A stretch of DNA of 64,000 nt from an uncultured Pseudobdellovibrionaceae bacterium (lineage in GTDB: Bacteria > Bdellovibrionota > FAC87 > UBA2466): positions 577 to 64,576 of the forward strand of contig CAZTDN010000019.1 in the NCBI GenBank assembly GCA_964611895.1, in the 5' to 3' direction. The notes under the pieces are model-generated. The model saw only the letters and a program-made list of their open reading frames with translations. It had not been told where the DNA came from and did no database searches. Each line of letters begins with the position of its first letter. The stretch's first letter is position 1. This document shows, one piece after another, positions 13,699-57,940 of this stretch. Made by a program: the position numbers and the translations under genes.

Positions 13699-13807
13699 GC
13701 GGCCCCACCCACCCGTTGTAATCTATTTTTAGTTCAAATTAAAATAAAACAAAAAAAGTTTGCGCTCACGCCAGTCCGGTCTGGTAAAAGGAGAGTACGA
13801 CTAATTT

Positions 13808-14710: not shown

Positions 14711-14814
14711 TTAAGGAATTATCTTCACAGTTTTTTTCCCTGGCTTGAGTTCGTTAAGCGAATAACGCCACGCACCGATATGTAAATGGTACCGTTGCCA
14801 TAGGAGAGAACCGC

Positions 14815-15849: not shown

Positions 15850-15855
15850 TGAACC

Positions 15856-16647: not shown

Positions 16648-16671
16648 ACTCCAATCGCCCAAAATGGGCGC

Positions 16672-18291: not shown

Positions 18292-18352
18292 TCAAAATCT
18301 AACACGACAGGTAGTCCACATTGGGTTAAATCCCAGCACTCGGAGGACCGCT

Positions 18353-19348: not shown

Positions 19349-19448
19349 GTTATTCCAATGTCTTAATTGTGCCTAGACGGTGCCTGGGAACCCTAATGCA
19401 TTCCTAACATTCCGCGGAAGGGAATTTAGGATAAAACCAGTGCGCACT

Positions 19449-22107: not shown

Positions 22108-22123
22108 GTGAAGGGCTGTCGGC

Positions 22124-22798: not shown

Positions 22799-22815
22799 TT
22801 CCGTGTTGAAGAGGA

Positions 22816-23523: not shown

Positions 23524-23558
23524 GTGTGTTAAGATAGGGGCTCTTAACCTTTGTCAGG

Positions 23559-25253: not shown

Positions 25254-25256
25254 GAG

Positions 25257-25835
25257 GTGTGTATGTTTCACAAGATTTTGGGGGTGTTGGCTTTGTGTGG
25301 CCTGGGTGCCTATGCAGATAGTGCCCCATTGAAAGCTAGGCTGGAAGAGGCCTTGCGTCAGCGAAATGTTCCTCGATCGGCACAGTGGTGGACCGAGCAG
25401 GGGGCTGAAGTTCCCGGGCTCTTGGTACAGATTTATCAGGAGAACAAAGGAATTCGCTCCCGTATTTCTGCGATAGAAGCATTGAGGTTTTTTTCAGATG
25501 CAGACACGGCTGTGTTCTTAAAAAAAGAAGCATTGGGTGCGAGCAACTTGTCGGTGAGGCGCTTGGCATTGCGTTCGATAGCGCTTTCGCAAGGGCTGAA
25601 AGAAAAAGCTTTTTTCCAAGAGGTTTTCAAAGATCCCAATCCACAGATTCGTTGCGCTGCCGCGGAAGCATTAATCCAGCTAAAAACAGAAGAGGCGAAC
25701 GCTCTGGTAACTGAATACCTCGCAAACGAAACAGTGCCCTGGATTCATACGCGTCTTGACCCTCCCAAAAGACGCGGGTTGCATCGACAAGCAGTCCGAC
25801 GAGCGACTCCGCCAGGGTTAGATCCACGCATGTAA
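25257..25835 (+). CDS. periplasmic HEAT-repeat (PBS-lyase-like) protein
   Basis: Signal peptide MCMFHKILGVLALCGLGAYA, then several ~30-aa repeats (IRSRISAIEALRFF..., VRRLALRSIALSQ..., DPNPQIRCAAAEALIQL) typical of HEAT/PBS-lyase repeats. Confidence 0.5.
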   Translation: MCMFHKILGVLALCGLGAYADSAPLKARLEEALRQRNVPRSAQWWTEQGAEVPGLLVQIYQENKGIRSRISAIEALRFFSDADTAVFLKKEALGASNLSVRRLALRSIALSQGLKEKAFFQEVFKDPNPQIRCAAAEALIQLKTEEANALVTEYLANETVPWIHTRLDPPKRRGLHRQAVRRATPPGLDPRM

Positions 25836-25878
25836 AGGGTATGACAGGCCTTTGCCCTTGGGGTAGTGTTTAGGTCCG

Positions 25879-31972: not shown

Positions 31973-32641
31973 ATGTCGCAGCTCTTTGATCGCAGCGCGA
32001 ATACTCTAGCATTGGTAATCATCGCCGTCGTTGGCATCACGGGCGCGGTGGGCGTAGGACTTTTATACGCCTTCCAAAGTTCCTCCTACGTCACGGAAGT
32101 GGATACCTACAAACAACAACCGGTGCCATTTAGTCACCAGCATCATGTCGGTGGATTGGGGATCGATTGCCGCTACTGCCACACTTCTGTGGAAGTTTCG
32201 GGCAATGCGGGTATCCCGCCCGTCGCCACTTGCATGAATTGTCACAAGATGCTCTGGGCGGACCAGCCGATGCTCAAACCCATTCGGGATGCCTTCAAAG
32301 GTGGGGCACCTATCGAATGGAACCGAGTGCACAAGCTTCCTGAGTTTGTCTATTTCAATCACAGCGCGCACGTGAACAAAGGTGTCGGTTGTGTTTCTTG
32401 TCACGGCCGCGTCGATAAAATGCCTCTGATGGCGAAGGCCAATACGCTTTACATGAAGTGGTGTTTGGATTGCCACCGCAACCCTGGTCCGAATCTTCGT
32501 CCGGTCAGCCAGATCACCAACATGGATTGGCATCCGGATGAAGCGTGGAAAAACATGAACAAGCTGGAACACCATGGCATTCGGGAAAAACACCGATTCC
32601 AAGTGGATCAGCTCACCAACTGCTCGGTGTGTCATCGATGA
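31973..32641 (+). CDS. actA: alternative complex III subunit ActA (pentaheme cytochrome c)
   Basis: N-terminal TM anchor and five CxxCH motifs (CRYCH, CMNCH, CVSCH, CLDCH, CSVCH). First gene of the act operon. Confidence 0.8.
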   Translation: MSQLFDRSANTLALVIIAVVGITGAVGVGLLYAFQSSSYVTEVDTYKQQPVPFSHQHHVGGLGIDCRYCHTSVEVSGNAGIPPVATCMNCHKMLWADQPMLKPIRDAFKGGAPIEWNRVHKLPEFVYFNHSAHVNKGVGCVSCHGRVDKMPLMAKANTLYMKWCLDCHRNPGPNLRPVSQITNMDWHPDEAWKNMNKLEHHGIREKHRFQVDQLTNCSVCHR

Positions 32642-35562
32642 GTGATATCAAAAATAAGATGTGGCGCAGTCTCGAGGAACGCACTGACGGTCCTAAGGCC
32701 AACGAGCGTTTTAACCCTTTTAATAACGATTTCTTGAGTCGCCGCGAGTTCATGGAGTGGACGAGCGGGATGGTGGCTGTATTAGGCGCCACCGCGTGCA
32801 CGCGGATGCCGGATCAGAAAATGATCCCATATACGAAACAACCCGAGCGCGTGATTCCGGGGCAGCCTTTGTTTTTTGCTACTTCGATGGCGCTTAACGG
32901 TCGCGCAATTGGATTGTTGGTCGAAAGCCATATGGGGCGCCCCACGAAGATTGAGGGTAATCCCGAGCACCCTGCGAGCTTGGGTACCTCGGACGCTTAC
33001 GCCCAAGCGTCGGTTCTCTCTCTTTATGATCCCGATCGTTCCCAAACGTTTTCTGCACAGGGTGATCTGGTTTATTGGAATAACTTCGTATCGAAGCTTT
33101 CGGCAATCGTATCGGGCCATGCAGCGGCTGGGGGCGAAGGGTTGCGTCTGCTGACCGAAACTGTGGTTTCTCCCACTTTGGCGGCGCAGATCCAGGAGCT
33201 TTTGCGAAAGTACCCACAAGCTCAGTGGCACCAGTATGAACCCGTGAATAGAGATGGTGAGCGGGAAGGGGCCTTGTTGGCCTTTGGTGAAGACGTCACC
33301 GCAGTATTTGATTTTGCTAAAGCGAAAACAGTAGTTTCTCTGGATAGTGATTTTCTTTCTGATCCAGCGTGTCCTCGGTACGCCAAAGATTTTGCTCTGG
33401 GGCGGCGGCCCGGCTCGGGTTGGATGAACCGCCTGTTTGCGGTAGAGCCTTCTCCCACAATTACGGGTGCGAAGGCGGATCATAAACTGGTTGCACGCGC
33501 TTCGGAGATTGAGGCGATCGCGGGTGCGCTGGCGGCAAGCTGTGGAGTGAGTGTTTCTGGGGTTCCGTCGCTCTCGGCGGAGAAAACCAAATGGGTCAAA
33601 GCAGCAGCCGAAGACCTAAAGGCCAATAGCGGAAGCTCGATTGTCGTGGCTGGCCGCTGGCAATCGCCTTTAGTGCATGCATTGGCGGCAGCTATCAACG
33701 TTCAACTCAAGAACGTAGGGCAAACGGTAAAATTCACGGCCCCGGTAGAGTTCAGCCCTGTAAACCAGACCGAATCGATTCAAAAGCTTGCGGCAGACAT
33801 GAATGCTGGCAAAGTAACGAGCTTGGTCATTTTGGGGGGGAACCCCGTATACAATGCTCCCGCAGGAACGCATTTTGAAACGGGCTTGGCTAAAGTCAAA
33901 AATCGCGTGCATTGCGGTCTCTATGTCGACGAAACCGGCTCGCTTTGCAATTACCACATTCCTGAAGCGCACTACCTCGAACAGTGGAGTGATGCGCGAG
34001 CATACGATGGCACGGCGGGCATCACGCAGCCTTTAATTGCTCCGCTGTTTGGCGGCAAGTCGCATCACGAAGTCGTGTCGGCGCTCTTGGGTCAAACGAC
34101 GAGTGACTACGATTCTGTGCGCGCTCATTGGAAGGCGAAGGCTTCTGGAGATTTTGAGAAGTTCTGGACCGGTGCATTGAACGATGGGTTTGTAAGCGGT
34201 ACCGCTTCGGCCTCGAAGAACGTCTCCCTTCGTTCTCCATCCAGTTGGGCGACCGTTTCGTCGGTCCCTTCAGAGGAAAAAGTCGAAGTCGTCTTTCGTC
34301 CGGATTCTTCTGTTTTTGACGGGCGCTTTTCCAATAGTGGTTGGCTACAGGAGTTGGCAAAGCCCATATCTAAGCTTGTCTGGGACAATGCAGCCTATAT
34401 TAGCGCGGGCACCGCGGCTAAGTGGAATGTCAAGAATGGACGCATGGTGCGCTTTACGATGGGAGAGCTCTCTGTAGACCTGCCTGTTTGGATCCTGCCG
34501 GGGCACGCTGCAAACAGTGTGACCTTGCCGTTGGGTTATGGTCGTAAAAAAGCCGGCAAGCTCGGGAGTCAGATCGGATTCGATGTTTATCCCTTGCGCA
34601 AGAACGGCGCCTGGCAGTTGGTGGGTGCAGATACGCAAGTTTTGGCGGGGTCTTATACTTTAACGAGTACCCAGGACCACCATAGTATGGAGAATCGTCC
34701 TATCGTTCGGACGACCTCCTTCGAGAATCACCAGCACCACCCACATTGGGCGCATCTTCATGAACACGTTCCTTCTGCTCTTGAAGGAAAGGACCTCGGT
34801 ACTGCTGGGGGCGAAATGGCTCCCGTGGCTCCAGCGGATTATCAGTGGGGAATGGCCATCAATCTAAGTGCGTGCACTGGTTGCAACGCCTGTGTGGTTG
34901 CTTGCCAATCGGAAAACAACATCCCTGTCGTCGGCAAAGAGGAAGTCGCTCGCGGTCGAGAAATGTCGTGGATCCGAATGGACCGGTATTACGAAGGGGA
35001 TTTGGAGAATCCGCAGACGCACTTTCAGCCGGTTGCCTGTGTGCAGTGCGAAACAGCCCCTTGCGAAATTGTTTGTCCTGTCGGAGCGACTGTGCACGAT
35101 AACGAGGGTTTGAACAATATGGTCTACAACCGATGTGTTGGGACGAAGTATTGTTCGAATAACTGCCCGTACAAGGCTCGGCGCTTTAACTTTTATGAAT
35201 ACACAAAGACCATCACGCCGACGGTAAAGATGGTGCAGAACCCCAATGTGACCGTGCGTAACCGAGGGGTGATGGAGAAGTGCACTTATTGCGTTCAGCG
35301 CATTAGCAGTGCTCGAATCACGGCAAAGAATGAAGGGCGCAAGATCCGAGACGGCGAGGTGCGCACTGCTTGCCAATCCGCTTGTCCCAGTCAGGCGATT
35401 TTCTTTGGAAACATTTCTGATCCCGAAAGCCTGGTATCAAAGATTAAAGCAGAACCTCAGAATTATGGTTTGCTTGAGGAATTGAACACCAAACCTCGTA
35501 CGACATACCTGGGGAAGGTCACTAACCCAGCTCCCTCACTGAAGGCGGAGAAACCAGCATGA
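32638..35562 (+). CDS. actB: alternative complex III subunit ActB (Tat-signal molybdopterin-oxidoreductase-like domain fused to 4Fe-4S ferredoxin domain)
   Basis: ATGA overlap with the actA stop. Tat signal SRREFMEWTSGMVAVLGATA, CISM-like body, C-terminal Cys clusters (CTGCNACVVACQSEN; CVQCETAPCEIVCP; CVGTKYCSNNCP; CTYCVQRI). Confidence 0.85.
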   Translation: MSDIKNKMWRSLEERTDGPKANERFNPFNNDFLSRREFMEWTSGMVAVLGATACTRMPDQKMIPYTKQPERVIPGQPLFFATSMALNGRAIGLLVESHMGRPTKIEGNPEHPASLGTSDAYAQASVLSLYDPDRSQTFSAQGDLVYWNNFVSKLSAIVSGHAAAGGEGLRLLTETVVSPTLAAQIQELLRKYPQAQWHQYEPVNRDGEREGALLAFGEDVTAVFDFAKAKTVVSLDSDFLSDPACPRYAKDFALGRRPGSGWMNRLFAVEPSPTITGAKADHKLVARASEIEAIAGALAASCGVSVSGVPSLSAEKTKWVKAAAEDLKANSGSSIVVAGRWQSPLVHALAAAINVQLKNVGQTVKFTAPVEFSPVNQTESIQKLAADMNAGKVTSLVILGGNPVYNAPAGTHFETGLAKVKNRVHCGLYVDETGSLCNYHIPEAHYLEQWSDARAYDGTAGITQPLIAPLFGGKSHHEVVSALLGQTTSDYDSVRAHWKAKASGDFEKFWTGALNDGFVSGTASASKNVSLRSPSSWATVSSVPSEEKVEVVFRPDSSVFDGRFSNSGWLQELAKPISKLVWDNAAYISAGTAAKWNVKNGRMVRFTMGELSVDLPVWILPGHAANSVTLPLGYGRKKAGKLGSQIGFDVYPLRKNGAWQLVGADTQVLAGSYTLTSTQDHHSMENRPIVRTTSFENHQHHPHWAHLHEHVPSALEGKDLGTAGGEMAPVAPADYQWGMAINLSACTGCNACVVACQSENNIPVVGKEEVARGREMSWIRMDRYYEGDLENPQTHFQPVACVQCETAPCEIVCPVGATVHDNEGLNNMVYNRCVGTKYCSNNCPYKARRFNFYEYTKTITPTVKMVQNPNVTVRNRGVMEKCTYCVQRISSARITAKNEGRKIRDGEVRTACQSACPSQAIFFGNISDPESLVSKIKAEPQNYGLLEELNTKPRTTYLGKVTNPAPSLKAEKPA

Positions 35563-36938
35563 GTAAGACAACCCTCTCTCCAGAACCGGTATTGGGTGGC
35601 GAGTACGGATACGGTTCCGTAACGGACAAGATCAACAATATCGTTGTCCGGGAGAAGATCCGGCCGGGTTGGATTTTGGGGTTCGGGCTTGGGTTTACTT
35701 TCCTGATGATGCTTTTGTTCACCATTGGGATGCTCTTTAAATACTGCGTCGGGATTTGGGGGATTAATATCCCGGTGGGTTGGGGTTTCGATATCATCAA
35801 CTTTGTTTGGTGGATCGGGATTGGTCACGCGGGAACTTTGATTTCCGCGATTTTGCTTTTGTTCCGGCAAGACTGGCGGACCTCCATTAACCGTTTTGCA
35901 GAGGCAATGACTCTGTTTGCGGTAGCTTGCGCAGCTTTGTTTCCAATCATGCACATGGGGCGGCCCGAAGTGGGCGCTTATTGGGTCCTGCCTTACCCAA
36001 ATGTCATGGGTATTTGGCCCCAGTTTCGCAGTCCCCTCATGTGGGACGTTTTTGCGATTTCGACTTACGGTTTGGTCTCGTTGCTCTTCTGGTTGGTAGG
36101 GCTATTACCCGATTTCGCGGCCCTGCGCGATCATTCTCCCCACAAATGGCAACGCCAGATTTACGGGATTCTATCTTTGGGTTGGAGAGGGTCCGCCGTC
36201 CACTGGGACCGGTATGAGACGATCTATCTGATCTTGGCAGGTCTAGCGACGCCACTCGTGCTTTCGGTACATACGATCGTTAGCTTCGACTTCTCCGTGG
36301 GGATAGTTCCAGGCTGGCATACGACGATTTTCCCACCCTATTTCGTCGCGGGAGCGATTTATTCCGGGTTTGCGATGGTGCTCACTTTGATGATCCCCAC
36401 TCGGCATTTTTTCGGTTTGCAGGATTTCATTACTCTCCGTCATTTGAACAACATGGCCAAAGTGATGCTTCTCACCGGCCTTATTGTTGCTTACGGGTAT
36501 TTTATTGAGGGTTTTATTGGTTGGTACAGCGGCAGCGAGTACGAGAAATACATGCTGCTCAACCGGTTTGTGGGGCCTTATAAGTACCTCTACTACGCCC
36601 TACTTGCCTGCAATGTTTTCATTCCGCAATTGCTCTGGTTCCGGAGCTTGCGCAGAAACATCCCGCTGCTTTTTGTGATGTCTCTCATCGTCAACACGGG
36701 AATGTGGCTAGAGCGGTTTGTCATCATCGTCGTGAGCCTATCGGCGGATTTCCTGCCGGGGGCTTGGGGGATGTACTACCCGCATGCCTTCGACTGGACC
36801 ATGTATCTTGGCACCATCGGGCTTTTCTTTTCGCTACTGTTTATCTTCATCCGTGTATTGCCGATGATCTCGGTTTTCGAGATGCGAGTGCTCATTACAG
36901 AAGAAGATCACAAGAAAAAAGGAATCCACCATGGATAA
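35559..36938 (+). CDS. actC: alternative complex III subunit ActC (NrfD/PsrC-like quinol-interacting membrane subunit)
   Basis: ~10 TM helices, NrfD-like profile. ATGA overlap with actB. Confidence 0.8.
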   Translation: MSKTTLSPEPVLGGEYGYGSVTDKINNIVVREKIRPGWILGFGLGFTFLMMLLFTIGMLFKYCVGIWGINIPVGWGFDIINFVWWIGIGHAGTLISAILLLFRQDWRTSINRFAEAMTLFAVACAALFPIMHMGRPEVGAYWVLPYPNVMGIWPQFRSPLMWDVFAISTYGLVSLLFWLVGLLPDFAALRDHSPHKWQRQIYGILSLGWRGSAVHWDRYETIYLILAGLATPLVLSVHTIVSFDFSVGIVPGWHTTIFPPYFVAGAIYSGFAMVLTLMIPTRHFFGLQDFITLRHLNNMAKVMLLTGLIVAYGYFIEGFIGWYSGSEYEKYMLLNRFVGPYKYLYYALLACNVFIPQLLWFRSLRRNIPLLFVMSLIVNTGMWLERFVIIVVSLSADFLPGAWGMYYPHAFDWTMYLGTIGLFFSLLFIFIRVLPMISVFEMRVLITEEDHKKKGIHHG

Positions 36939-37476
36939 GGTTCAAGAACCAAAAATCTATGGCCTTATCGCCGAGTTTGATTCAGTAGAGACGTTACTGC
37001 ATGCGGCCGAAAAGACACGCGACGCGGGGTATTCCAGCACGGATGCGTACTCTCCTTTTCCGGTAGAAGGAATCATGGAGGCTCTGGGTAAACGGCATTC
37101 TCGGATTGCGTATCTGATCTTCTGTTTCGGGCTGACTGGCTGTGCCCTGGCGTTTGGGATGATGTTTTATACGAATGTCTGGGATTACCCGATCAATGTT
37201 GGTGGGCGGCCATTGTTAAGCTGGCCAATGTATCTTCCAATTATGTTTGAATTGACGGTACTGCTTTCGGCCTTTTCGGCAGTGTTCGGGATGATTGCTC
37301 TAAACGGGCTCCCCAAACATTATCATCCGCTGTTCAATGTCCCTGAGTTTCTCAAAGCTTCAAGAGACACTTTTTTTATTGCCATTGAGTCGACGGATCC
37401 CAAGTTTGATTTGTCAAAAACCAAAGACTTCTTACAGAGTTTGCATCCGAGAGGCGTCCATGAAGTGCAGCCGTAG
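36931..37476 (+). CDS. actD: alternative complex III subunit ActD
   Basis: Position in the operon; ~180 aa with a soluble N-part and two C-terminal TM helices, as described for ActD. Confidence 0.6.
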   Translation: MDKVQEPKIYGLIAEFDSVETLLHAAEKTRDAGYSSTDAYSPFPVEGIMEALGKRHSRIAYLIFCFGLTGCALAFGMMFYTNVWDYPINVGGRPLLSWPMYLPIMFELTVLLSAFSAVFGMIALNGLPKHYHPLFNVPEFLKASRDTFFIAIESTDPKFDLSKTKDFLQSLHPRGVHEVQP

Positions 37477-38038
37477 TGCAGTCGCCGTTCTTTTGCTCAC
37501 CACCTTGGCTTTGGTAGGGTGCGAGCGCCGGCAGGCCATGTACAAACAGCCCAAGTTTAAACCTTATCAAGAGAACGACTTTTTCGAAGACAAGCGTTCG
37601 GCTCGGCCTTTAGTTGAGGGGACAGTTCCTCGAGGGGTGATAGACGATCATCTCAACAAGGGGATTGTCGATGGCAAGCCAGTTTCGGATTTTCCGTTCC
37701 CCATCACTCGAAAAGAAATGGATCGGGGAATGGATCGTTACAATATCTACTGTGCACCTTGCCACAGTCGAACCGGAGACGGATGGGGAATGGTCGCTCA
37801 GCGTGGGATCAAACGCCCTCCCTCTTTTCACGAGGCCCGCTTGAAGGCCGCCCCAGTTAGCCATTTCTTCAATGTGGTTAGCAACGGCATCGGGATGATG
37901 TCTGGGTATTCGGCTCAGATATCTCCCGCCGATCGGTGGGCGATCATCGCATACGTGCGAGCCCTTCAACAGAGTCAAGATGCGCGTTTGGCAGACGTTC
38001 CAGAATCTGAGCGCGCTCAGATGGAGGCAGGCAAATGA
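37460..38038 (+). CDS. actE: alternative complex III subunit ActE (monoheme cytochrome c lipoprotein)
   Basis: Internal ATG 37460 gives lipoprotein signal MKCSRSAVAVLLLTTLALVGC. Single CAPCH heme site plus distal Met region (GIGMMSGY). Confidence 0.7.
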   Translation: MKCSRSAVAVLLLTTLALVGCERRQAMYKQPKFKPYQENDFFEDKRSARPLVEGTVPRGVIDDHLNKGIVDGKPVSDFPFPITRKEMDRGMDRYNIYCAPCHSRTGDGWGMVAQRGIKRPPSFHEARLKAAPVSHFFNVVSNGIGMMSGYSAQISPADRWAIIAYVRALQQSQDARLADVPESERAQMEAGK

Positions 38039-48656: not shown

Positions 48657-49177
48657 AAAAGCTATTGGCGATGGCGGTAGTTTGCCTTGGGGCATTTGCC
48701 TGGGCGTTTCCTTCTATTCACGGGGAGGATCTTGTTTCTGGAAAAAACGTCGATTGGAAGTCGGGCGAAAAGGTCTCGGTGCTGGTGTTTCTGTCAGATC
48801 ACTGCCCTTGTTCGATTGCGCATCAGCCGGCGCTCGAAAAATTGGCTAAAGAATATGGTGAATTTTCGTTTCTTGGGATCGTATCGAATGCGCACGATTT
48901 GCGTGCGGCGCGATCGCATTTTAGCAAAACCAAACTGCCTTTTCCGGTGATTGCGGAGCCGGGGCATGATTGGGCAGATGCTCTGGGGGCGTTGAACACT
49001 CCCCACGTGTTTGTGGTTCGGGGAGACGCGGTTTTGTACCGCGGGTCTATCGACAATTCTCGAGACGCCGTCACGGCGGATCAGCACTTTTTATCAGCAG
49101 CTTTGGAAGACTTGCGTCAGGGGCGCGCCATTCGAGTGAATGAGTCGCGGCCTTTGGGCTGTGCCATCAGAAGGTGA
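48653..49177 (+). CDS. secreted thioredoxin-fold protein (redoxin/AhpC-TSA-like) with CPC motif
   Basis: Signal peptide MKKLLAMAVVCLGAFAWA. VLVFLSDHCPCS at the position of the redoxin active site. ATG overlaps the hldD stop. Confidence 0.45.
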   Translation: MKKLLAMAVVCLGAFAWAFPSIHGEDLVSGKNVDWKSGEKVSVLVFLSDHCPCSIAHQPALEKLAKEYGEFSFLGIVSNAHDLRAARSHFSKTKLPFPVIAEPGHDWADALGALNTPHVFVVRGDAVLYRGSIDNSRDAVTADQHFLSAALEDLRQGRAIRVNESRPLGCAIRR

Positions 49178-49632
49178 GGTCGATCATGAAGGGGTGTCTT
49201 AAAGCGAAGGGTTTTGTTCTTTTTGCGATTGCTTGTGGATTGGCGTCCTGTGGGAGGGAACCCGTAGAGGTGTTCGATTCCGTCGATAGAGTGGCTGCCA
49301 GTTGCGATTTGGAGTTCCCCAAAGCCGGGCTTTGTGCCGAAGTGAAATGGACCAAACCACCCACTGCTGACGAGCCCAATGGTTTTACGGTGCGTTTTTG
49401 GGAAAAAGCTAAAGGTTCACCCACAGGGCCTTTTGTGGAGCCAGCAAGCGCGCCGAGTTCTTTTCTCATCATGACTTGCTGCAAGACGCCCACGCGTTGC
49501 CCTCTGAAAAAGTCTCGTGCAGGGGAGTACGAAGCTTCGGGAATTACACTCGCGTCGGGGAAGAAATATTGGCAGTACGTCGTGGTGGGCTCCGAAAAAG
49601 TGAAGCTCGCTGGGGAAGTGAGCGTGAAGTGA
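49174..49632 (+). CDS. hypothetical lipoprotein
   Basis: Lipobox LASCG after a hydrophobic leader. No known domain. Confidence 0.45.
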   Translation: MRSIMKGCLKAKGFVLFAIACGLASCGREPVEVFDSVDRVAASCDLEFPKAGLCAEVKWTKPPTADEPNGFTVRFWEKAKGSPTGPFVEPASAPSSFLIMTCCKTPTRCPLKKSRAGEYEASGITLASGKKYWQYVVVGSEKVKLAGEVSVK

Positions 49633-50543
49633 AGCCGCGGGGGTTTGTTGTCGCTCTGCTACTGGGGGCTGCGGCGCGGTTTACTTGGGCCGCTGCTTGT
49701 TGTGGGGGGAACAACCTGGTCCCTTCTTTGATTTCTGGAGATCAGCGCACTCAAGTCACGGCGACCACCGCCTATTCCCGCGTTTTGGGTGAGGTCCCCA
49801 TCGAGGGAGCCACGCAGTGGCGTGACGAGGCAGACGTGGAGTCGCGGTCGTCCATGCGCCTGGATGCGGCGACACTTCTCTCGGATCGGTGGCAGGTGGG
49901 ATTGAGCCTGCCGGTAGTGCGGCGTTTTCGTGAACGCAATGGCGTGCAGGCACAAGCGATGGGAGTCGGCGATGTGGCGGTCCACCTTGGCTATGAAGTG
50001 TTGCCCCAGTGGACTTATTCGCCGTGGAAACCGAAGGGATGGCTGTTTGCTAGTTTGACGGCACCCACCGGCGTGGCTCCGGAAAATTCAACCGCCCTGT
50101 ATCAGATTGACTCCCTGGGACGCGGGTACTGGAATGTTGCTCTGGGCGGGATGCTTTTGAAAACCTGGGCCGACTGGGACGTTTTGTTTCTGGCGCAGGT
50201 GAATCAATCCTTTGCCAAGATCCTTACCAGCGATGCAGGCGACTTTATCCTTCGCCCTGGACTGGGCGGTTCTGCGGCTCTGGGCATTGGATGGAGCCGG
50301 GATGCTTTGCGCATTGGAGTGAACGGGAGTGTATTGTATGAAGGTGCTGTCGCTACCCAAGGTTTGGTAGATGAAGTGGGAACACGCCAGATTTCATTTC
50401 CGCTGAGTTTGCAGGTTTCCTATTTGATCTCTGACGCGTGGTCGTTGGGCGCTTTGTATTCGGACAACGGCTGGTTTGGTCCACAAAACGTGACTCTGAA
50501 TCAGTCGATTAGTTTGGTGGTGCAGACGCGTTGGGATCGGTAG
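49629..50543 (+). CDS. hypothetical secreted/outer-membrane protein
   Basis: GTG start overlapping the upstream stop. Signal peptide VKPRGFVVALLLGAAARFTWAAA. Alternating amphipathic beta-like C-half. Confidence 0.4.
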   Translation: MKPRGFVVALLLGAAARFTWAAACCGGNNLVPSLISGDQRTQVTATTAYSRVLGEVPIEGATQWRDEADVESRSSMRLDAATLLSDRWQVGLSLPVVRRFRERNGVQAQAMGVGDVAVHLGYEVLPQWTYSPWKPKGWLFASLTAPTGVAPENSTALYQIDSLGRGYWNVALGGMLLKTWADWDVLFLAQVNQSFAKILTSDAGDFILRPGLGGSAALGIGWSRDALRIGVNGSVLYEGAVATQGLVDEVGTRQISFPLSLQVSYLISDAWSLGALYSDNGWFGPQNVTLNQSISLVVQTRWDR

Positions 50544-51363
50544 GGGGCTGAGGCAGCGCGGAACGTTTAGGCGGTTTGGTCAGGCCTTTGAGACCCGTCA
50601 TCAGGAAAAAGTACTCTATGGAATCCCTAGCAATCCAGGTGGCTCCCATCCGATTCAAATGGGTTTGATTTGCTTCGGGGTGCAGCCGGTAATAGGTAAT
50701 GAGCGCGCCATCAGAACGGCGCACTATCGCTAGTTCACCGGTGTGGGGATTGAGTTTGTAATCCAAGACGGTTTCCGCCCCGGCATTGGCTCCGTCTTTT
50801 GCGGGCCGAGTCACCACGATGCACGCGGGGTCACTGTTCGAGGAAAACGCGACAGCTGCTTTTTCATAAGCCGCCAGAGCCTCTTCTAGAAGCGCGCTTT
50901 TTTCGGCGATGGTTTTGGCGTTGGCCATGGCTTTGCGGAACGGGATTTCGATTTCTGGGTAGTCGCCCCCCGACCCGGGGAGGTGGGCGAGTAGTTCTGC
51001 GGTGTACTTTTTTGTACCTTTACGGTGCTCGATTTGGGCCACTCCCAACACGTGCTTGATAAAGTGTTGAATCCGAGTGAGTTCTGAAAAACCATCGGTG
51101 GGGATCTGCTTAGAGCGGGGCATTCCGGGGACGGACCCGTTGCCCATTGGAATCGGTCTGCTGAGATTTTCCAGTATGTCGCTCCAGGTGACTTGTTTGC
51201 CGGATTCTAAGTCTGCTGCAACGACGCGATCTAGGGGGACCGTGACCAGGGTGCGAGGGTTGGTCTTGGGGTTAAGCCAGCCAAACAAGCAATGGCTCCA
51301 GTCAAACATCGCGTGGGCTGGCGAGTAGATCAGAAATACGGCTAAAAACAGGGGCTTGCGCAT
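50509..51363 (-). CDS. hypothetical secreted protein
   Basis: Signal peptide MRKPLFLAVFLIYSPAHA from internal ATG 51363. Helical Ala/Glu-rich middle. No motif recognised. Confidence 0.4.
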   Translation of the reverse strand: MRKPLFLAVFLIYSPAHAMFDWSHCLFGWLNPKTNPRTLVTVPLDRVVAADLESGKQVTWSDILENLSRPIPMGNGSVPGMPRSKQIPTDGFSELTRIQHFIKHVLGVAQIEHRKGTKKYTAELLAHLPGSGGDYPEIEIPFRKAMANAKTIAEKSALLEEALAAYEKAAVAFSSNSDPACIVVTRPAKDGANAGAETVLDYKLNPHTGELAIVRRSDGALITYYRLHPEANQTHLNRMGATWIARDSIEYFFLMTGLKGLTKPPKRSALPQPPTDPNASAPPN

Positions 51364-51475
51364 ACGCTTTAGGCTCTCCGGCGGGGATTTGTCCATTATA
51401 GCGCAAATCACGGGGTTTCATTGATCCAGGCTTCGAAACCTGCTAAAAGTCCCTTCTTTTAGAGGGGTTATCAGA

Positions 51476-52828
51476 GTGAAATTGCGGCTGCTTGTTTTGT
51501 TTCAAATTGTCTGTGTCGCTTGGAACAGTTTTGCCGAGAAACCGATTGTCGATGGGCCAGCGACACGGGTGCATTTCCTGCTGGTGGCGGACATCGAGGC
51601 GACCAACATTGGAAAGAGCACCGTACGCGACGTCGAAAGATTTGAGTCCCTGATCCGAGGCTACTTTGAAGATGAAAACCATCCCGAGCGGCGCAGCCAG
51701 TTCACTCTGACCAAAATGGGGTTCAGCGGCACCGTTTCCCCCCAGGATGTGATTGCTTATTACAAAGCGGTACAAATGGTTTCTAGCGTGAACGAAGCCA
51801 TTGTTTTTTATTACTCGGGCCATGGCGATTCGAATGCGCGGGGTGGGCAAAACTTTACCATGAGTGGAGGGGTATTGCCTCGGCCCGACTTTCGATTGGC
51901 TCTGGAAGGTTTGGGGGTGAAATCGCTCATCATTTTATCGGATGCGTGTAGCCCCGAATCGCGAGAGACGTTGGCCCGAACCCAGCCAAAGTCGTTTACC
52001 GGAGACTATTTAAATCGAAAAGCACCGGCGATGGCCTTGAGTGAAGAACAGCAGTTTATTTTTCATGATCTCTTTGTGCGGGGACAGGGGACGGTAGATA
52101 TAAACTCTTCGAGTTATGGGGAATATTCCTGGTCGAGCGAAAATTTGGGTGGCCTGTTTACCAGGAGATTATTTGATCTGATTTTGAATAGTGAGCTGGA
52201 GAAGTTGGATTCGAATAGCGATGAGTTTCTTTCTTGGGAGGAGTTTTTCCCGAGGCTGAAAAGAGACGTGTCGGATTATTTTCAAACGATGAAAGAGTCT
52301 GCGCCGGATGATGCGCCGATCAAGGAGTCTAAAGCTCAGACTCCCTATGCATTTACCTATCCAAGCTACCGCGATTTAGCTGGTTCGGTAGCAGGCAGTC
52401 CTCTGCAACCGGGGGTCTTGCAGCTGGTTAGCTATTCGCAGGCCTATGACTACCGTGTTTCGGGGTTTACGGGGCATTTGGTCATGTTTCAGCTTGTGAC
52501 GAGTCAGCCGGTTGCCAAGATAGAAGCTTTGGATGTGGCGATCCGATTCCGTCAGCAGGACGGCACTTTTTTGCCTAGTACAGCCGTGTCGCCCGCTTTC
52601 AAAGCTGTAGATGGAACGGTGGCGGCTTACGCTACCATTGTGATACTGGGCAAAAACTTCAACCGGGGCACGTTTTTCGTTCCCAACCTGGCAATTTTTC
52701 CCAATCCATTGCCGAACGGGACCCAAGTCACGCTCACCCCCGTTCTGCAGATTTTCACTCGGGGGCCACTGCGCCTGATCGCGCAGCACGATTTGCGAGA
52801 CATCGTCTTTGTTCAAAATGATCCGTAG
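51476..52828 (+). CDS. secreted caspase-like (peptidase C14) protein with EF-hand-like Ca-binding loop and C-terminal beta-rich domain
   Basis: Signal peptide. Caspase His-Cys dyad in correct order and spacing (IVFYYSGHGDS...LIILSDACSPE). DSNSDEFLSWEE matches EF-hand loop positions 1, 3, 5, 12. Confidence 0.6.
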   Translation: MKLRLLVLFQIVCVAWNSFAEKPIVDGPATRVHFLLVADIEATNIGKSTVRDVERFESLIRGYFEDENHPERRSQFTLTKMGFSGTVSPQDVIAYYKAVQMVSSVNEAIVFYYSGHGDSNARGGQNFTMSGGVLPRPDFRLALEGLGVKSLIILSDACSPESRETLARTQPKSFTGDYLNRKAPAMALSEEQQFIFHDLFVRGQGTVDINSSSYGEYSWSSENLGGLFTRRLFDLILNSELEKLDSNSDEFLSWEEFFPRLKRDVSDYFQTMKESAPDDAPIKESKAQTPYAFTYPSYRDLAGSVAGSPLQPGVLQLVSYSQAYDYRVSGFTGHLVMFQLVTSQPVAKIEALDVAIRFRQQDGTFLPSTAVSPAFKAVDGTVAAYATIVILGKNFNRGTFFVPNLAIFPNPLPNGTQVTLTPVLQIFTRGPLRLIAQHDLRDIVFVQNDP

Positions 52829-52877
52829 ACGTGGCAAAGCGGCCTGTGGTAACCGTCTGACTTGATTCCGTTTATGG

Positions 52878-52953
52878 GCGGGCGTAGCTCAGTTGGTAGA
52901 GCATCAGCTTCCCAAGCTGAGGGCCGAGGGTTCGAACCCCTTCGCCCGCTCCA
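52878..52953 (+). tRNA. tRNA-Gly (anticodon CCC), 76 nt with encoded CCA
   Basis: Hand-folded cloverleaf. Acceptor GCGGGCG/CGCCCGC, D-arm GCTC-AGTTGGTA-GAGC, anticodon stem TCAGC/GCTGA with loop TTCCCAA, T-arm GAGGG-TTCGAAC-CCCTT, discriminator T, CCA. Confidence 0.9.
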
Positions 52954-53019: not shown

Positions 53020-54279
53020 ATGCGAAATCTGTTCTTTGGTCTCATAACGACGGTGGTTTTGAGTAGCTGCAATACACGGCTAATTTTGCAGGGGGCCGGG
53101 GCGCCATCCTCAGGAGAGAGGTTGCCCGGCAAATACGCCCCCGCTACGCCCGATACAGAAGAAAATACAGATCCACTCAAGCTTGTTTCGATTTATATGT
53201 CGGGATGGTCGGCTTGCGGTCTAACTCCGGAAAAGCGGACCTACTGCTGGGGAGCGCGTCCTCCAGGGTGGCGAGACGCGGGCTACGATCTACCTCCTTA
53301 TGTCCTCGCAAGTGAGTGGCGATTTGAGTCCTTGGCCAGTACCGGCGATGCTGCTTGCGGCCTAGACATGAACGGCAAGGCCTTTTGCTGGGGAGAAAAC
53401 GAATTCGGAGCACTGGGAATTGGTAAGATAGGCAGAGAGTATAGCTCTCTCTCCCCCAAAGAAGTCAGTGGAGGGCTGCTTTTTTCGACGATAAAGGGAA
53501 GCGGCAGTCACTTTTGTGGGCTCACTCTAAATGACCAAACAGCCTACTGTTGGGGTGCTAACACTGACGGCCGCCTCGGTGTAGGCGATGAACTACCTCG
53601 TGGAACCCCCACCGCCGTCGCAGGAGGAATGCGTTTCAAAACCCTCGATGCTGGTACTTTTACTTGTGGAATAGCTTTTGATGATCGGCTTTATTGTTGG
53701 GGAAATACGGCCTACATTACTGTTCGATTTGGTTCGTTGGCTTCTGAGTATATAAGCAACGTTCCAATGTTGTTTGAAATGCCAGAGAGGCTAGTCTCTA
53801 TATCCGTGGGAAGTGCTAGCGCGTGTGGATTGACCGAGGAAGGTAAAGCCTATTGCTGGGGATATGGGGTGCACGGTCAACTCGGGTCAGGTATTAATGA
53901 CGTGACCAAGATTCCTCAGCCTGTAAGCGGGGGTTTGCGTTTCTCAGACATTCAACTCGGCAGCTATGCAAGCTGGGGCCTCACTTTGGACGGAAAAGTT
54001 TATCTCTGGGGAATGAATATACTCGGCGACCTCAACCCGGCCATGAGTGCGAATGAAATTACGAATGTACCTATTGAGGTTCCGACCGCGCTGCGGTTCT
54101 CTCGTATTTCGGGAGATGCAGCTGGAGTGTGCGGCCTTGAGAAGGACACCGGTTTGCTCTATTGCTGGGGCAATAGCTATGACTCAAAGCTATTTGTTAA
54201 GCAAGCAGCGGCACCTGGCAGTCAAGTAGGAACGCACGTTCCGACGCTGGTTCGCATTCGAAAAGAACTTTTGAATTAA
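53020..54279 (+). CDS. RCC1-repeat (beta-propeller) lipoprotein
   Basis: Lipobox VLSSCN. Six or more repeats of the CGLTxxGxxYCWGxNxxGxLG pattern (e.g. CGLTPEKRTYCWGA; CGLDMNGKAFCWGENEFGALGIG; CGLTLNDQTAYCWGANTDGRLGVGD; CGLTEEGKAYCWGYGVHGQLGSG). Confidence 0.7.
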   Translation: MRNLFFGLITTVVLSSCNTRLILQGAGAPSSGERLPGKYAPATPDTEENTDPLKLVSIYMSGWSACGLTPEKRTYCWGARPPGWRDAGYDLPPYVLASEWRFESLASTGDAACGLDMNGKAFCWGENEFGALGIGKIGREYSSLSPKEVSGGLLFSTIKGSGSHFCGLTLNDQTAYCWGANTDGRLGVGDELPRGTPTAVAGGMRFKTLDAGTFTCGIAFDDRLYCWGNTAYITVRFGSLASEYISNVPMLFEMPERLVSISVGSASACGLTEEGKAYCWGYGVHGQLGSGINDVTKIPQPVSGGLRFSDIQLGSYASWGLTLDGKVYLWGMNILGDLNPAMSANEITNVPIEVPTALRFSRISGDAAGVCGLEKDTGLLYCWGNSYDSKLFVKQAAAPGSQVGTHVPTLVRIRKELLN

Positions 54280-55025: not shown

Positions 55026-55715
55026 TCAGTGAGCTGCGTGAGGATAAGAGAAGCTGTGCGCATTTGGGCCCAGATCTAACAGGGTTTCCACTTCAAAGCG
55101 GAGTGTGGTTTGCTTTGGAAACTGGAACTCGGATCGGCGTAACCCGCGCTCGATCAGCAGCGTTTGGACGTTACGGTAGGGATGGTTCAACCAGGCAAGC
55201 CTCTTTTCCAGGCTCTGCGGCAAAAAAGTTTCAAAGTCAGCTTGAGGTTGAGTGGGCATTTCCGTTGCAGCGAATTGGAGCTCGTTTCGCACCGTACTGA
55301 ACGGGTACTCCTCTACTCGAGAGGATAAACCCGCCTCCACGGGATTGCGGAACACGTACTTATATGCGTGCGAGTAATAGATACCGTACGTGATCAGCGA
55401 CCAGTGGTACCTGGCTCCGAAAATCCGATTGATTCGTCCGGAAACGCGACCGATTTCCTTGCTTACTTCCCTGAGAAAGTAGTTCATGCACTCTCCCAAA
55501 TCCGCCTCGGGAGTCGATGCGATTAAGTGAAAGTGATTCGACATCAAGACAAAGGAGTGGATGTTCCAGCCGTAGCGATTGCGTACGATTTCGAGTATTT
55601 CTTTGAAGATTCTCCAAACGACATCGGTTGGTAAATAGAATGGCTCGCGGTTATTGCAGCGGGCAGTGACATGATAGGGAAACTGTTTTGTTCGATACAA
55701 GGGTTTTCTTGGCAT
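55026..55715 (-). CDS. REP-associated tyrosine transposase (RAYT) / IS200-like Y1 transposase family protein
   Basis: HuH motif SNHFHLIAS and catalytic-Tyr region YKYVFRNPVEAGL (Y..Y..NPV characteristic of RAYTs/COG1943). Flanked by REP-like palindromes. Confidence 0.75.
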   Translation of the reverse strand: MPRKPLYRTKQFPYHVTARCNNREPFYLPTDVVWRIFKEILEIVRNRYGWNIHSFVLMSNHFHLIASTPEADLGECMNYFLREVSKEIGRVSGRINRIFGARYHWSLITYGIYYSHAYKYVFRNPVEAGLSSRVEEYPFSTVRNELQFAATEMPTQPQADFETFLPQSLEKRLAWLNHPYRNVQTLLIERGLRRSEFQFPKQTTLRFEVETLLDLGPNAHSFSYPHAAH

Positions 55716-55752: not shown

Positions 55753-55796
55753 GGTACGCGGTACCTTTTCAACAAAAGGTACCGCGTACCGGATTA
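55753..55796. repeat. REP-like perfect hairpin (17-bp arms GGTACGCGGTACCTTTT / AAAAGGTACCGCGTACC, 4-nt loop) followed by CGGAT
   Basis: Read directly: ggtacgcggtacctttt caac aaaaggtaccgcgtacc at 55753-55790, 38 nt upstream of the RAYT start codon. Confidence 0.65.
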
Positions 55797-56216
55797 AAAG
55801 GATGCTCGGCAGGCGTTGAATAGCCGATCGTCTACTAGGTACTGTGTTTTGTAATAGGCCGCCCAATACTGGTTTAGGTTGGCCAGGTAGTTTTTGTAGC
55901 TGGCGTCCTTACGCTGTTTCAGCGGGGCGATCTGGCAGTCGAGCTTTGCCCATCCGGTAGCAAAGTTTTGATAAATCGCATTGCTCGTAATCCAGAGCTC
56001 TAGGTATCGGCCTTGGTCGGCTGGCTGAAAAACATGGATGCCTTCACTAAATTGATAAACAGCCAGGTATTGAGTCGAGTCGCCATGCACTTGTAACGGA
56101 ATAGCGATGTGTGAACCGTCGACATAGTAGGTGAGTCCATTGAGGGTTGCCGGCGCCCACTGGGCCGAAGCAAGGGTGGTCAAGGCGGCAAAAGCCAAAG
56201 TGAAAAGTCTTTTCAT
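55794..56216 (-). CDS. small secreted protein bracketed by REP elements
   Basis: Signal peptide MKRLFTLAFAALTTLASA from internal ATG 56216. ~140 aa, Tyr/Trp-rich. No homology recognised. Confidence 0.45.
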   Translation of the reverse strand: MKRLFTLAFAALTTLASAQWAPATLNGLTYYVDGSHIAIPLQVHGDSTQYLAVYQFSEGIHVFQPADQGRYLELWITSNAIYQNFATGWAKLDCQIAPLKQRKDASYKNYLANLNQYWAAYYKTQYLVDDRLFNACRASF

Positions 56217-56372
56217 TTTCGTTTCTCCTGGTGAATAAATCGGTGGGTTGCCACCGCGGTACACCGGCACCTTGTGCAACGTCGATGCCAAGTCTCAAGG
56301 GCAGAAAGCGCAGCCAAAACCCCGGAGAATCCTTAGTTTTGTATCAAAGCTGAGATAGTCGTTCTCAAAAAA

Positions 56373-56445
56373 GGTACGCGCTACCTTTTCAAGAAAGGTA
56401 CGCGCTACCTTTTTCACGAAAGTAACCGCGTACCGGATAACGCGG
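56373..56445. repeat. REP-like cluster: two direct copies of AAAGGTACGCGCTACCTTTT plus an inverted partial copy GTAACCGCGTACCGGATAACGCGG
   Basis: 56373-56389 and 56397-56414 are near-identical units (each a small hairpin). 56422-56445 shares GCGTACCGGAT with the 55778-55796 copy. Confidence 0.55.
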
Positions 56446-56524
56446 AGCGGTCGAGTTAAGCGTCGGAAATGCCGATGTTTTAGAGCTGGGGTTCTCCCCC
56501 ACTTTAAAACGCTGAGGAGATTTC

Positions 56525-57940
56525 ATGCGCTTGCTTTGTGTAGTTTTTGGAGTGTTGTCGGCTTCGCTCGCTTTGGCCAAGAGTAACTGCCACTTTGAAC
56601 GGCTATTGCCCGCAGCACCTGTGGCGCCTCCAAAACCCGTCACTCCCCCTAAACCCAAACCCGCACCCATGCCCTCTCCCGCTCCAGCGCAACCCGATCC
56701 CGGACGGCGTCTGCCCGATCGGTTTCCCGATCGCCCGGTGAAGCCCACAACCGATCCCCAAAACATCAACCCGTTTGGTCTGTACAAAGACAAAAGCAAT
56801 GCACGTTTTTTGGGGCAAGTCCCAGAGCCCGTTAGAGAAAACTGGTCGCGGAGCTTCGAGGAAGAGCGCACCCGCTTGCAAGCAGAAGCAGCAAAGCTGG
56901 GCGTAACCGACCCTTCGCAGCTAATGCCCAAACTCTTTCAAAATAAATATAAACTCCTCGAAATCGAAGAAAAGCATCGGCCGGAAATCGAAAAACTGCT
57001 CCGCCGAATGGCGTCAGAAGTCTATGGGGAGGACGCCACGCAGTTCTTAGAAATCCGGATCAGCAATCAGCTCCCCGCATGGCCAGAAATTGAAAAAGCA
57101 CCCGCTTCTAGCCGCCTGGGGCAGTGGTTTGCGCAGCTCAAGAAGCGGTTTTCTCGAAAGGGCAGGCAGCAGATACTATCCCAAAAACAAGACATCGAGT
57201 TTCTGAAATACCGTCGAGAGCTGTACAACATGCTCTCCCAAGCGCACGGCTACTACGGTGTGAAACGTTTTTACTCAATGTACGAAAAAGAACTGCGCGC
57301 GCTCGATCCCGAACTCCCCGAACTGCTTCGCAACGACCTTACCCTTGCCATGTATGGTAATAGCCTCATGATCCAGGGCATGCCACAGGGGCATGTCCCG
57401 CGGTTTAAGAACCGGCAAGCGATGGAAGGCATGGTGCATGGCCGCAATATCACCGAGGTGGCGGCCGAGAGAAAACAAGACGAAGACGGCTCAACCTATC
57501 TCCAAATGGGCCATCGCCGTGGAACGGCGGTAGGGCACAACTCCCACGATGCAGCCCACGAAACGGCAAAGGCCGGGTTCAAGCTCGCCACCGCCTCAGA
57601 AGCTGTTGTGCGCTCCACATTGACCGCTACAGAGCGAAAAGTTCTCGATGAGGCGACCAATACCCCTCTTGCCGAAATTCGTCAGGGAGTCTTTGGGCCT
57701 TATCTCGACGTCACCTTGAGAAAATCCATTCGTGCGTTGGTGCATCCGAATAACAGCGCGCAGCAGCTCACGGATGCGCAATACCTCACTGTAATCGACC
57801 GCGTTTTTAGTGAGTTGCCGCCAGCTCAGTTTAATTTGTTTATTGAAAAAGCAGCGGATCCGGGTTTTGCCGCAAGTCCGGAAGCCGTGGCGGAATTGCG
57901 CAATACACTCGGAGATTTTGATCTGTTTCCAAAGCCATGA
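56525..57940 (+). CDS. secreted Pro-rich protein of unknown function, translationally coupled to the giant ORF
   Basis: Signal peptide MRLLCVVFGVLSASLALA, then PPKPVTPPKPKPAPMPSPAPAQPDP linker and a ~380-aa helical domain. Stop TGA overlaps ATG 57937 (ATGA). Confidence 0.55.
   Translation: MRLLCVVFGVLSASLALAKSNCHFERLLPAAPVAPPKPVTPPKPKPAPMPSPAPAQPDPGRRLPDRFPDRPVKPTTDPQNINPFGLYKDKSNARFLGQVPEPVRENWSRSFEEERTRLQAEAAKLGVTDPSQLMPKLFQNKYKLLEIEEKHRPEIEKLLRRMASEVYGEDATQFLEIRISNQLPAWPEIEKAPASSRLGQWFAQLKKRFSRKGRQQILSQKQDIEFLKYRRELYNMLSQAHGYYGVKRFYSMYEKELRALDPELPELLRNDLTLAMYGNSLMIQGMPQGHVPRFKNRQAMEGMVHGRNITEVAAERKQDEDGSTYLQMGHRRGTAVGHNSHDAAHETAKAGFKLATASEAVVRSTLTATERKVLDEATNTPLAEIRQGVFGPYLDVTLRKSIRALVHPNNSAQQLTDAQYLTVIDRVFSELPPAQFNLFIEKAADPGFAASPEAVAELRNTLGDFDLFPKP

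Follow-up and report, generated by a model that had tools for sequence, protein, structure and literature searches.

Caspase-fold proteases are usually treated as intracellular enzymes of death and signalling, and the question raised by the locus described here is what such a fold does in a bacterial protein that appears to carry both a signal peptide and a calcium-binding loop. The locus lies in a window of 64,000 nucleotides (the whole stretch of DNA that was analysed) from an uncultured Pseudobdellovibrionaceae bacterium (assembly GCA_964611895.1, contig CAZTDN010000019.1, positions 577 to 64,576 of the forward strand), in which an initial annotation had marked a gene at 51476-52828 as encoding a secreted, metacaspase-like protein with an EF-hand-like calcium loop. 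The product is very likely a cysteine peptidase of the caspase fold (family C14) that is exported, has an EF-hand-type loop within its catalytic domain and ends in a beta-sandwich. A fuller account, which describes an exported, probably Arg/Lys-specific cysteine peptidase that would be stabilised or switched on by Ca2+ and would use its C-terminal sandwich for targeting, is held with moderate confidence when taken as a whole, calcium mechanism included.

The open reading frame (ORF) is a real gene. It was recovered at exactly the coordinates first proposed, together with a Shine-Dalgarno site, and a protein identical to its product is recorded in NCBI assembly GCA_013565695.1.

51476..52828, + strand: complete coding sequence of 450 amino acids (aa) plus stop, with a GTG start, from the ORF list
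51462..51467, + strand: Shine-Dalgarno-like GAGGGG, 8 nucleotides (nt) before the GTG start, read off the sequence

An antisense ORF (52376-52837) overlaps the 3' part of the gene. The two peptides originally singled out as carrying a catalytic dyad, IVFYYSGHGDS and LIILSDACSPE, are located at aa 109-119 (nt 51800-51832) and aa 151-161 (nt 51926-51958), respectively.

Several lines of evidence converge on a caspase-type catalytic domain, whose principal features are as follows.

51560..52363, + strand: caspase/hemoglobinase-fold catalytic domain, aa 29-296 (beta1 to beta6), from Pfam, AlphaFold2 and Foldseek
51821..51823, + strand: codon of catalytic His116, motif YSGHG at the end of beta3, from conservation and alignment with MALT1 and metacaspase-1
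51947..51949, + strand: codon of catalytic Cys158, motif SDAC at the end of beta4, from conservation and alignment with MALT1

The Pfam Peptidase_C14 profile (PF00656) matches aa 104-271 with 23.5 bits (E=5.1e-5), above its gathering cut-off of 21.4, and the same model is matched by 33 of 38 aligned relatives, the best at E=1e-11; an NCBIfam scan of the protein gave no significant match, and a PDB sequence search with the single protein gave none. In an AlphaFold2 model built from the family alignment, aa 30-295 have a predicted local distance difference test score (pLDDT) above 90, and the elements follow one another as beta1 (31-38), alpha1 (46-64), beta2 (76-81), alpha2 (89-98), beta3 (107-114), a three-stranded mini-sheet (116-135), alpha3 (136-144), beta4 (150-156), a partly disordered linker, beta5 (205-210), alpha4 (227-244), alpha5 (254-275) and beta6 (291-294). 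Foldseek comparison of the model with PDB returned MALT1 (4.7e-9), Geobacter GSU0716 (3.5e-7) and caspase-7 (5.7e-7), as well as caspases-3 and -8. Caspases are characterised by a six-stranded sheet, a mini-sheet between beta3 and alpha3, and a His and a Cys at the C-terminal ends of beta3 and beta4 (PMC4357240). Because the modelled order of elements, the mini-sheet and the placement of H116 after strand 107-114 and of C158 after strand 150-156 all match this arrangement, the predicted topology is of the six-stranded caspase/paracaspase type, with five parallel strands, one antiparallel strand and five helices. The original description of the protein as metacaspase-like is correct as regards the caspase fold; the metacaspase label itself does not hold, as the two extra strands of that group are missing from the model.

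An exhaustive search of 1.84 billion cluster representatives (clusters at 50% identity) recovered 878 relatives at E<=1e-3, of which 270 reach E<=1e-10, and every relative is aligned over roughly aa 20-300; a word-indexed protein search returned just 2-6, labelled 'hypothetical protein'. Residue counts given here and below refer to the best 152 of the 878 relatives, among which His116 is conserved in 145, Gly117 in 151 and Cys158 in 147. Profile-to-PDB alignments with solved C14 structures, used solely to fix the residue register, pair the family segment 'lfyYsGHGa' with 'LLYYAGHGYE' of MALT1 and 'FFHYSGHGG' of metacaspase-1, and 'vvlltDcCs' with 'NVFLLDMCRK' of MALT1. The initial annotation had suggested a search with the Peptidase_C14 model, and had named the lack of a profile match or a His and Cys outside the catalytic positions as grounds for abandoning its proposal; the match obtained lies above the curated cut-off, and the alignments with MALT1 (both residues) and metacaspase-1 (His) place the dyad in catalytic register. 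Judged from these motifs, the protein probably has cysteine-dependent peptidase activity.

The second distinctive element is the loop, which lies within the catalytic domain.

52208..52243, + strand: EF-hand-type 12-residue loop, aa 245-256, DSNSDEFLSWEE, from the sequence and family counts
52154..52300, + strand: helix-loop-helix, aa 227-275, made of alpha4 (227-244) and alpha5 (254-275), from DSSP analysis of the AlphaFold2 model

The loop peptide noted at the outset offers oxygen ligands at D245 (loop position 1), N247 (3), D249 (5), S253 (9) and E256 (12), with the hydrophobic residue L252 at position 8. DSSP assigns helix to residues 227-238, 241-244 and 254-275 at a pLDDT of about 92-97, so that in the model the entering helix runs to residue 244 and the exiting helix begins at residue 254, loop position 10, a geometry resembling that of EF-hands. 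Measured against a PROSITE-type EF pattern, the query agrees at 12 of 13 positions; a version of the pattern that accepts any residue at position 6 arose by chance in 0.42% of 100,000 shuffles of the protein and had no other match among the window ORFs of >=100 aa. The strict pattern occurs at the homologous place in 84 of the 152 relatives. Position by position, the family retains Asp at position 1 (118/152), Asn or Asp at 3 (112/152), Asp or Asn at 5 (133/152), Gly at 6 (100/152), Val, Leu or Ile at 8 (141/152), Trp at 10 (152/152) and Glu or Asp at 12 (135/152), and the canonical ligand set is complete in 106 members, of which 103 also have an intact dyad. The Pfam models EF-hand_5 and EF-hand_1 match 5 and 4 of 38 members, respectively (E<0.01, down to 4e-4), and on EF-hand_1 the best score among the helix-loop-helix segments of tested relatives is 19.6 bits (E=6e-4), under its cut-off of 25.4. 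The loop is the alpha4-alpha5 turn of the caspase core rather than an appended domain; the equivalent turn of caspase-3 reads '...LKQYADKLE', and the profile alignment stops there, on the family residues 'LD'. The motif DxNxDGxVxWxEF is also found in many unrelated proteins, among them proteins of Polaribacter, Stenotrophomonas, Roseomonas/Falsiroseomonas and marine archaea, so that a Trp at EF position 10 does not set this caspase family apart.

A scan of DNA for the EF-loop pattern, with one genome per species and a sample biased by the pattern itself, yielded 120 loci, of which about 8 encode members of the family and the remainder unrelated EF-hand proteins. The family loci belong to Planctomycetales, Isosphaeraceae, Pirellulaceae, Planctomycetia, Planctomycetota and Lacipirellulaceae, with a weak match in Gemmatales, and one Pseudobdellovibrionaceae metagenome-assembled genome (MAG) contains a member 30.6% identical to the query. 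Taken over the alignments, the combination of an exported caspase core and an EF loop is a trait of the family. Individual members show further variation: a Lacipirellulaceae MAG (locus L067, 3-2030) carries two tandem paralogues, a Planctomycetia member (locus L063) has a linker between the catalytic Cys and beta5 enlarged to about 130 aa, and in another (locus L083) the catalytic domain is followed by two PDZ-like repeats.

Regions flanking the core provide indications of where the protein acts and what it may bind.

51476..51535, + strand: predicted Sec signal peptide, aa 1-20, (M/V)KLRLLVLFQIVCVAWNSFA, with cleavage after SFA, by inspection
52418..52816, + strand: C-terminal immunoglobulin (Ig)-like beta-sandwich, aa 315-447, from the AlphaFold2 model

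The N-terminus, MKLRLLVLFQIVCVAWNSFA followed at the cleavage point by EKP, consists of a basic n-region (K2/R4), a 12-residue hydrophobic core (L5-W16) and a c-region (S18-F-A20, then E21), with Ser and Ala at positions -3 and -1, respectively, of the predicted cleavage and no lipobox. A hydrophobic N-terminal segment was detected in 128 of 134 full-length relatives by a crude hydropathy test covering the 17-60 residues before beta1. The signal peptide postulated earlier is plausible in view of its three regions and of this recurrence, and the protein is most likely located in the periplasm or beyond. A beta-rich C-terminus of about 150 aa, likewise postulated, was borne out by the model, in which the last 155 aa are all-beta and form an eight-stranded sandwich with a mean pLDDT of 79 and a predicted template modelling score (pTM) of 0.76. 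These 155 aa have no Pfam match, and jackhmmer among the C-termini of the family detected no significant relative of the query C-terminus; a weak link to a five-member C-terminal class scores 13.3 bits, which none of 2000 shuffles reached (0/2000), and the alignment with this class was the basis of the C-terminal model. Foldseek comparison of the C-terminal model with PDB returned generic Ig-like sandwiches only, the best at E=5e-3. After beta6 the relatives fall into at least four C-terminal classes (n=44, 24, 15 and 5); the class of 24 includes relatives with PDZ matches, and ricin-lectin or WD40 domains occur in single relatives. In place of the query's sandwich, relatives thus have other beta-domains, PDZ or lectin domains. 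The sandwich of the query is probably a targeting or binding module that would dock the protease on substrates or on the envelope.

The likely substrate preference of the enzyme can be approached through the loops and acidic residues that surround the predicted active site.

52106..52153, + strand: substrate-groove loop, aa 211-226, SSSYGEYSWSSENLGG, counterpart of caspase 'SWR...GSWF'
52337..52345, + strand: Q288-T-P290 before beta6, counterpart of caspase 'KQIP' (Gln in 142/152, Pro in 140/152)
51950..52066, + strand: variable, Arg/Lys-rich linker between beta4 and beta5, aa 159-197, corresponding to the caspase inter-subunit loop

In the profile alignments, the groove loop is aligned to the caspase-3 p12 segment 'YYSWRNSKDGSWFIQSL', and the family segment 'GefsWgdseeGGlFTraL' pairs with 'GYYSWRNSKDGSWFIQSL' of the same subunit; Trp219 is conserved in 101 relatives, Gly225 in 147 and Phe228 in 149. 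Two acidic positions of the S1 type stand out. Asp156, present in 137 relatives, lies two residues before Cys158 and is aligned with the Asp of MALT1 LLDMC, and Asp52 is Asp in 109 relatives and Asn in 18. By motif, Asp52 and Asp156 appear to match Asp95 and Asp211, the S1 residues of the metacaspase TbMCA2 (PMC4357240). Since acidic residues occupy positions that line S1 in metacaspases and MALT1, cleavage after Arg or Lys is predicted, and the P1 specificity is probably for these two residues. The linker, which has a pLDDT below 50 at aa 172-179 and ranges among relatives from 21 to 130 aa (median 28), may be a site of autoprocessing.

These elements can be assembled into a mechanism. The Sec signal peptide would direct the protein to the periplasm or beyond, that is, from a cytoplasm with little Ca2+ to surroundings in which it is plentiful. 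The alpha4/alpha5 turn, reshaped as one EF-hand loop of the canonical type (D245-E256), would bind one Ca2+. Following the caspase topology (PMC4357240), alpha4 would start at the S218-W219 groove loop and alpha5 would end at the second groove loop before beta6, which is antiparallel; in this topology, the metal site would be found at the far tip of the alpha4/alpha5 hairpin, opposite the groove loops. Bound Ca2+ would lock the hairpin and bring both groove loops into order, and the enzyme would become stable and active solely after export. Such Ca2+-dependent ordering and activation is favoured because both groove loops hang from the EF helices and because Ca2+ levels are far higher outside the cytoplasm than within. 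In clan CD, enzymes that depend on Ca2+ by way of a different kind of site are common; clostripain, metacaspases, gingipains and separase are examples (PMC4357240).

A number of observations weigh against this account. The sequence-level matches to solved C14 structures are weak one by one (E 0.02-0.1), the signal peptide was called by inspection alone, and the nearly invariant Arg136 (148/152), at the start of alpha3, is left without explanation and could alter the specificity prediction. Within the loop, position 6 is occupied by E250 where most relatives have Gly, and Glu falls outside the PROSITE-type pattern; the query helix-loop-helix scores 13.0 bits on Pfam EF-hand_1 (E=0.08), below the cut-off; and the EF pattern scan detected no second EF loop in the protein, although EF-hands are normally paired. 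The EF-hand fit claimed at the outset is upheld by the ligands, the geometry and the conservation in the family, and is not upheld by position 6 or by the Pfam score. In addition, 46 of the 152 relatives lack one or more ligands yet retain the dyad, which implies that calcium is not indispensable to the fold; as these ligand-deficient members keep the loop length and the Trp, the scaffold is ancestral and the ligands dispensable in some lineages. Lastly, by topology the putative site is far from the catalytic centre, a position equally consistent with a purely structural role.

Three other explanations have to be weighed against a calcium-stabilised or calcium-activated enzyme. The same exported C14 peptidase might use the EF-hand, devoid of any switching function, as a purely structural Ca2+ site that protects it against unfolding and proteolysis outside the cell and is comparable to those of Slt35 or gingipain R, an interpretation that is plausible in outline and on the whole unlikely. 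Judged by the topology of the model and of known caspases (PMC4357240), the loop at the hairpin end is distal to the active site, approximately 30% of relatives have degraded ligands with dyad and loop length retained, and a stabilising role is ascribed to the Ca2+ sites of gingipain (PMC4357240). What argues for more than incidental stabilisation is that the five ligand positions have been kept in approximately 70% of a family so divergent (about 30% identity). Moreover, alpha4 and alpha5 run directly into both groove loops, a continuity that may make stabilisation and activation inseparable. It is also conceivable, though improbable, that the loop of the query is a decayed, non-binding remnant, a trace of an ancestral site in an enzyme that has become Ca2+-independent. 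The Glu at position 6, the Pfam score of 13 bits and the clear loss of ligands in other lineages would fit such decay, but ligand positions 1, 3, 5, 9 and 12 and the hydrophobic position 8 of the query are all canonical, Gly6 is likewise absent from about one third of relatives, which have kept their ligands, and the helix-loop-helix geometry is preserved in the AlphaFold2 model at a pLDDT of about 92.

A departure of another kind would be a non-catalytic caspase-fold scaffold (a pseudo-peptidase), or else a cytoplasmic death or defence orthocaspase held by an N-terminal membrane anchor. Bacterial pseudo-orthocaspases do exist (PMC6426788), and in prokaryotic caspase homologues, helices at the N-terminus have been interpreted either as transmembrane helices or as signal peptides (PMC3501461). 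The His/Cys dyad, however, is intact in the query and in approximately 95% of relatives, the c-region SFA followed by Glu suits signal peptidase I, PADLOC returned no matches and no conserved partner genes were found, and the domains fused in relatives are of PDZ and lectin types, all of which make either version very improbable. The preferred account, an exported peptidase stabilised or switched on by Ca2+, would, if true, represent an independent way of keeping a dangerous protease silent until it is outside the cytoplasm. It would also provide a simple, mutable model of allosteric control in the caspase fold, and an entry to the abundant, unstudied envelope proteases of Planctomycetota and their relatives.

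The genomic surroundings bear on a further proposal, namely that the protein acts on prey envelopes as a weapon of a predatory bacterium. Both neighbours named in the initial annotation, a tRNA-Gly and an RCC1-repeat lipoprotein gene, are present downstream.

52878-52953: tRNA-Gly(CCC), downstream of the caspase gene
53020-54279: RCC1-repeat (beta-propeller) protein with an LSSC lipobox, directly after the tRNA-Gly (Pfam RCC1, E=5e-28)

No neighbour genes are conserved across the 8 family loci and the window, and no synteny was detected between the window and the Pseudobdellovibrionaceae loci. The predator-weapon idea is without support: the identified relatives are mostly from Planctomycetota, with one Pseudobdellovibrionaceae genome, and the neighbourhood is not conserved. 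Among the fetched loci, a counterpart of the RCC1 protein was present only in a Dehalococcoidia MAG (locus L097), at about 30% identity. The window contains no paralogue of the caspase gene, and PADLOC assigned neither the gene nor its neighbours to a defence system. A second copy of the tRNA-Gly 3' end, as expected of a tRNA-linked island, was not found; a sigma-70 scan gave no promoter-like site, and Rfam gave no RNA besides the tRNA-Gly. Approximately 2 kb from the tRNA, a gene at 55026-55715 (- strand) encodes a 229-aa protein with an IS200-like transposase domain (Y1_Tnp, Pfam E=4e-7), a candidate REP-associated tyrosine transposase; neither repeats nor borders of an island were detected. 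ORFs around the caspase gene (window 49174-51411 and 55794-57940) have no Pfam, NCBIfam or PADLOC match, and several have N-terminal signal or lipoprotein features: 49174-49632 (with an LASC lipobox), 49476-50543, 50509-51411 (- strand), 55794-56291 (- strand) and 56525-57940. This patch looks like a set of lineage-specific envelope proteins.

Elsewhere in the window, a phosphate/polyphosphate neighbourhood (9611-27654) comprises genes for Ppk1 (9611-11713), Ppx/GppA (12178-13698, - strand), a PhoX alkaline phosphatase (16672-18291) and a PhoR/PnpS-like histidine kinase (25879-27654). A homologue of GNAT/FeeM-like N-acyl amino acid synthases is encoded at 13808-14710 (Acetyltransf_5, E=4e-26, with a weak Autoinducer synthase match). 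An operon resembling that of alternative complex III (32545-43071) encodes a 1005-aa fused molybdopterin-like/Fe-S subunit (32545-35562) and a DsrP/ActC-like membrane subunit (35559-36938), followed by cytochrome c oxidase subunit I (41452-43071). A sigma-54 gene is also present, as is a gene at 43999-45909 (- strand) for a protein of 636 aa in which a central DnaJ (J) domain (aa 356-409, in two matched stretches) is the only recognised domain.

Several characterised systems resemble the protein in part. Metacaspases (C14B), such as TbMCA2, Yca1 and AtMC4, share with it the YSGHG and D-x-C motifs and the acidic S1 positions. Dependence on Ca2+ is a hallmark of metacaspases, and their sheet is eight-stranded, with two extra strands between beta4 and beta5 (PMC4357240). 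Their Ca2+ site consists of four Asp residues in the p20 region (D173/D189/D190/D220 in TbMCA2), and they are intracellular; the query is predicted to be exported, and the Ca2+ site proposed for it is the EF-hand between alpha4 and alpha5. No acidic cluster is visible by eye after the GHG of the query (GDSNARGGQNF), where the metacaspase profile alignments span the His motif only. Assignment of the protein to the metacaspases was rejected: between residues 156 and 205 the model has no strands, only a disordered linker and one helix, and the absence of extra strands between beta4 and beta5 sets it apart from the eight-stranded form.

Orthocaspases and other C14 proteins, including MaOC1 and Geobacter GSU0716 (PDB 3bij), resemble the query in being prokaryotic C14 members with variable extra domains. 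MaOC1, which has been characterised, is cytoplasmic and reportedly Ca2+-independent. Some prokaryotic caspase homologues have N-terminal helices or signal peptides (PMC3501461), and one survey records, for 7 archaeal orthocaspases, an 'EF-hand motif' among the additional motifs and reports no prokaryotic paracaspases (PMC6426788). In such surveys the EF-hand is an extra motif and not, as here, a family-wide loop between core helices of an exported clade. The literature searched, whose coverage is incomplete, gave no account of an EF-hand built into a caspase core or of such an exported clade; as part of the caspase core, the EF-hand is undescribed in that literature, which is absence of evidence only.

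Among exported enzymes, gingipain R (C25, clan CD) is comparable in being Arg-specific and Ca2+-stabilised and in having an Ig-superfamily domain after the catalytic domain (PMC4357240). It differs in its own larger, ten-stranded catalytic domain, its prodomain and its three Ca2+ sites, which are not EF-hands and are located elsewhere, and only one weak Peptidase_C25 match was obtained among the relatives. Single ('single-handed') EF-hands are known in exported bacterial proteins such as the lytic transglycosylase Slt35, which resembles the query in having one helix-loop-helix Ca2+ site inside a periplasmic enzyme that is not itself an EF-hand protein, and differs in host fold and enzyme class.

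The closest resemblance is to the paracaspase MALT1 (PDB 8v4x, 3uo8, 4i1p and 3v4o), which is the best fold match and whose profile match spans both catalytic motifs. The two share a six-stranded caspase-type sheet, an Asp two residues before the Cys and an Ig-like sandwich after the catalytic domain (Ig3 in MALT1). Sequence similarity is nevertheless marginal (E about 0.03), and the Ig-like likeness is one of fold type, the best PDB match at E=5e-3 being to unrelated proteins. MALT1 is cytosolic, whereas the query is predicted to be exported, and the alpha4-alpha5 EF-hand loop belongs to the query. Classification of the protein as a paracaspase proper was rejected as well, since the definition by flanking Ig domains and a death domain does not apply to a protein that has only a signal peptide before the catalytic domain, with no death domain and no N-terminal Ig domains (Ig1/Ig2). 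A broader and more tentative proposal, rather doubtful at present, is that the EF-hand caspases constitute a large, uncharacterised clade, mainly of Planctomycetota and also of Bdellovibrionota, in which the alpha4/alpha5 EF-hand would serve as a compartment sensor and which would be the closest bacterial counterpart of paracaspases. At the Ca2+ level of the cytoplasm the protease would be disordered or inactive, and export would bring it into its active state. The suggested kinship is based on the six-stranded sheet, the Asp-x-Cys pocket and the trailing Ig-like domain, and the compartment sensor, if real, would be a Ca2+ switch whose mechanism has no relation to the Asp cluster of metacaspases.

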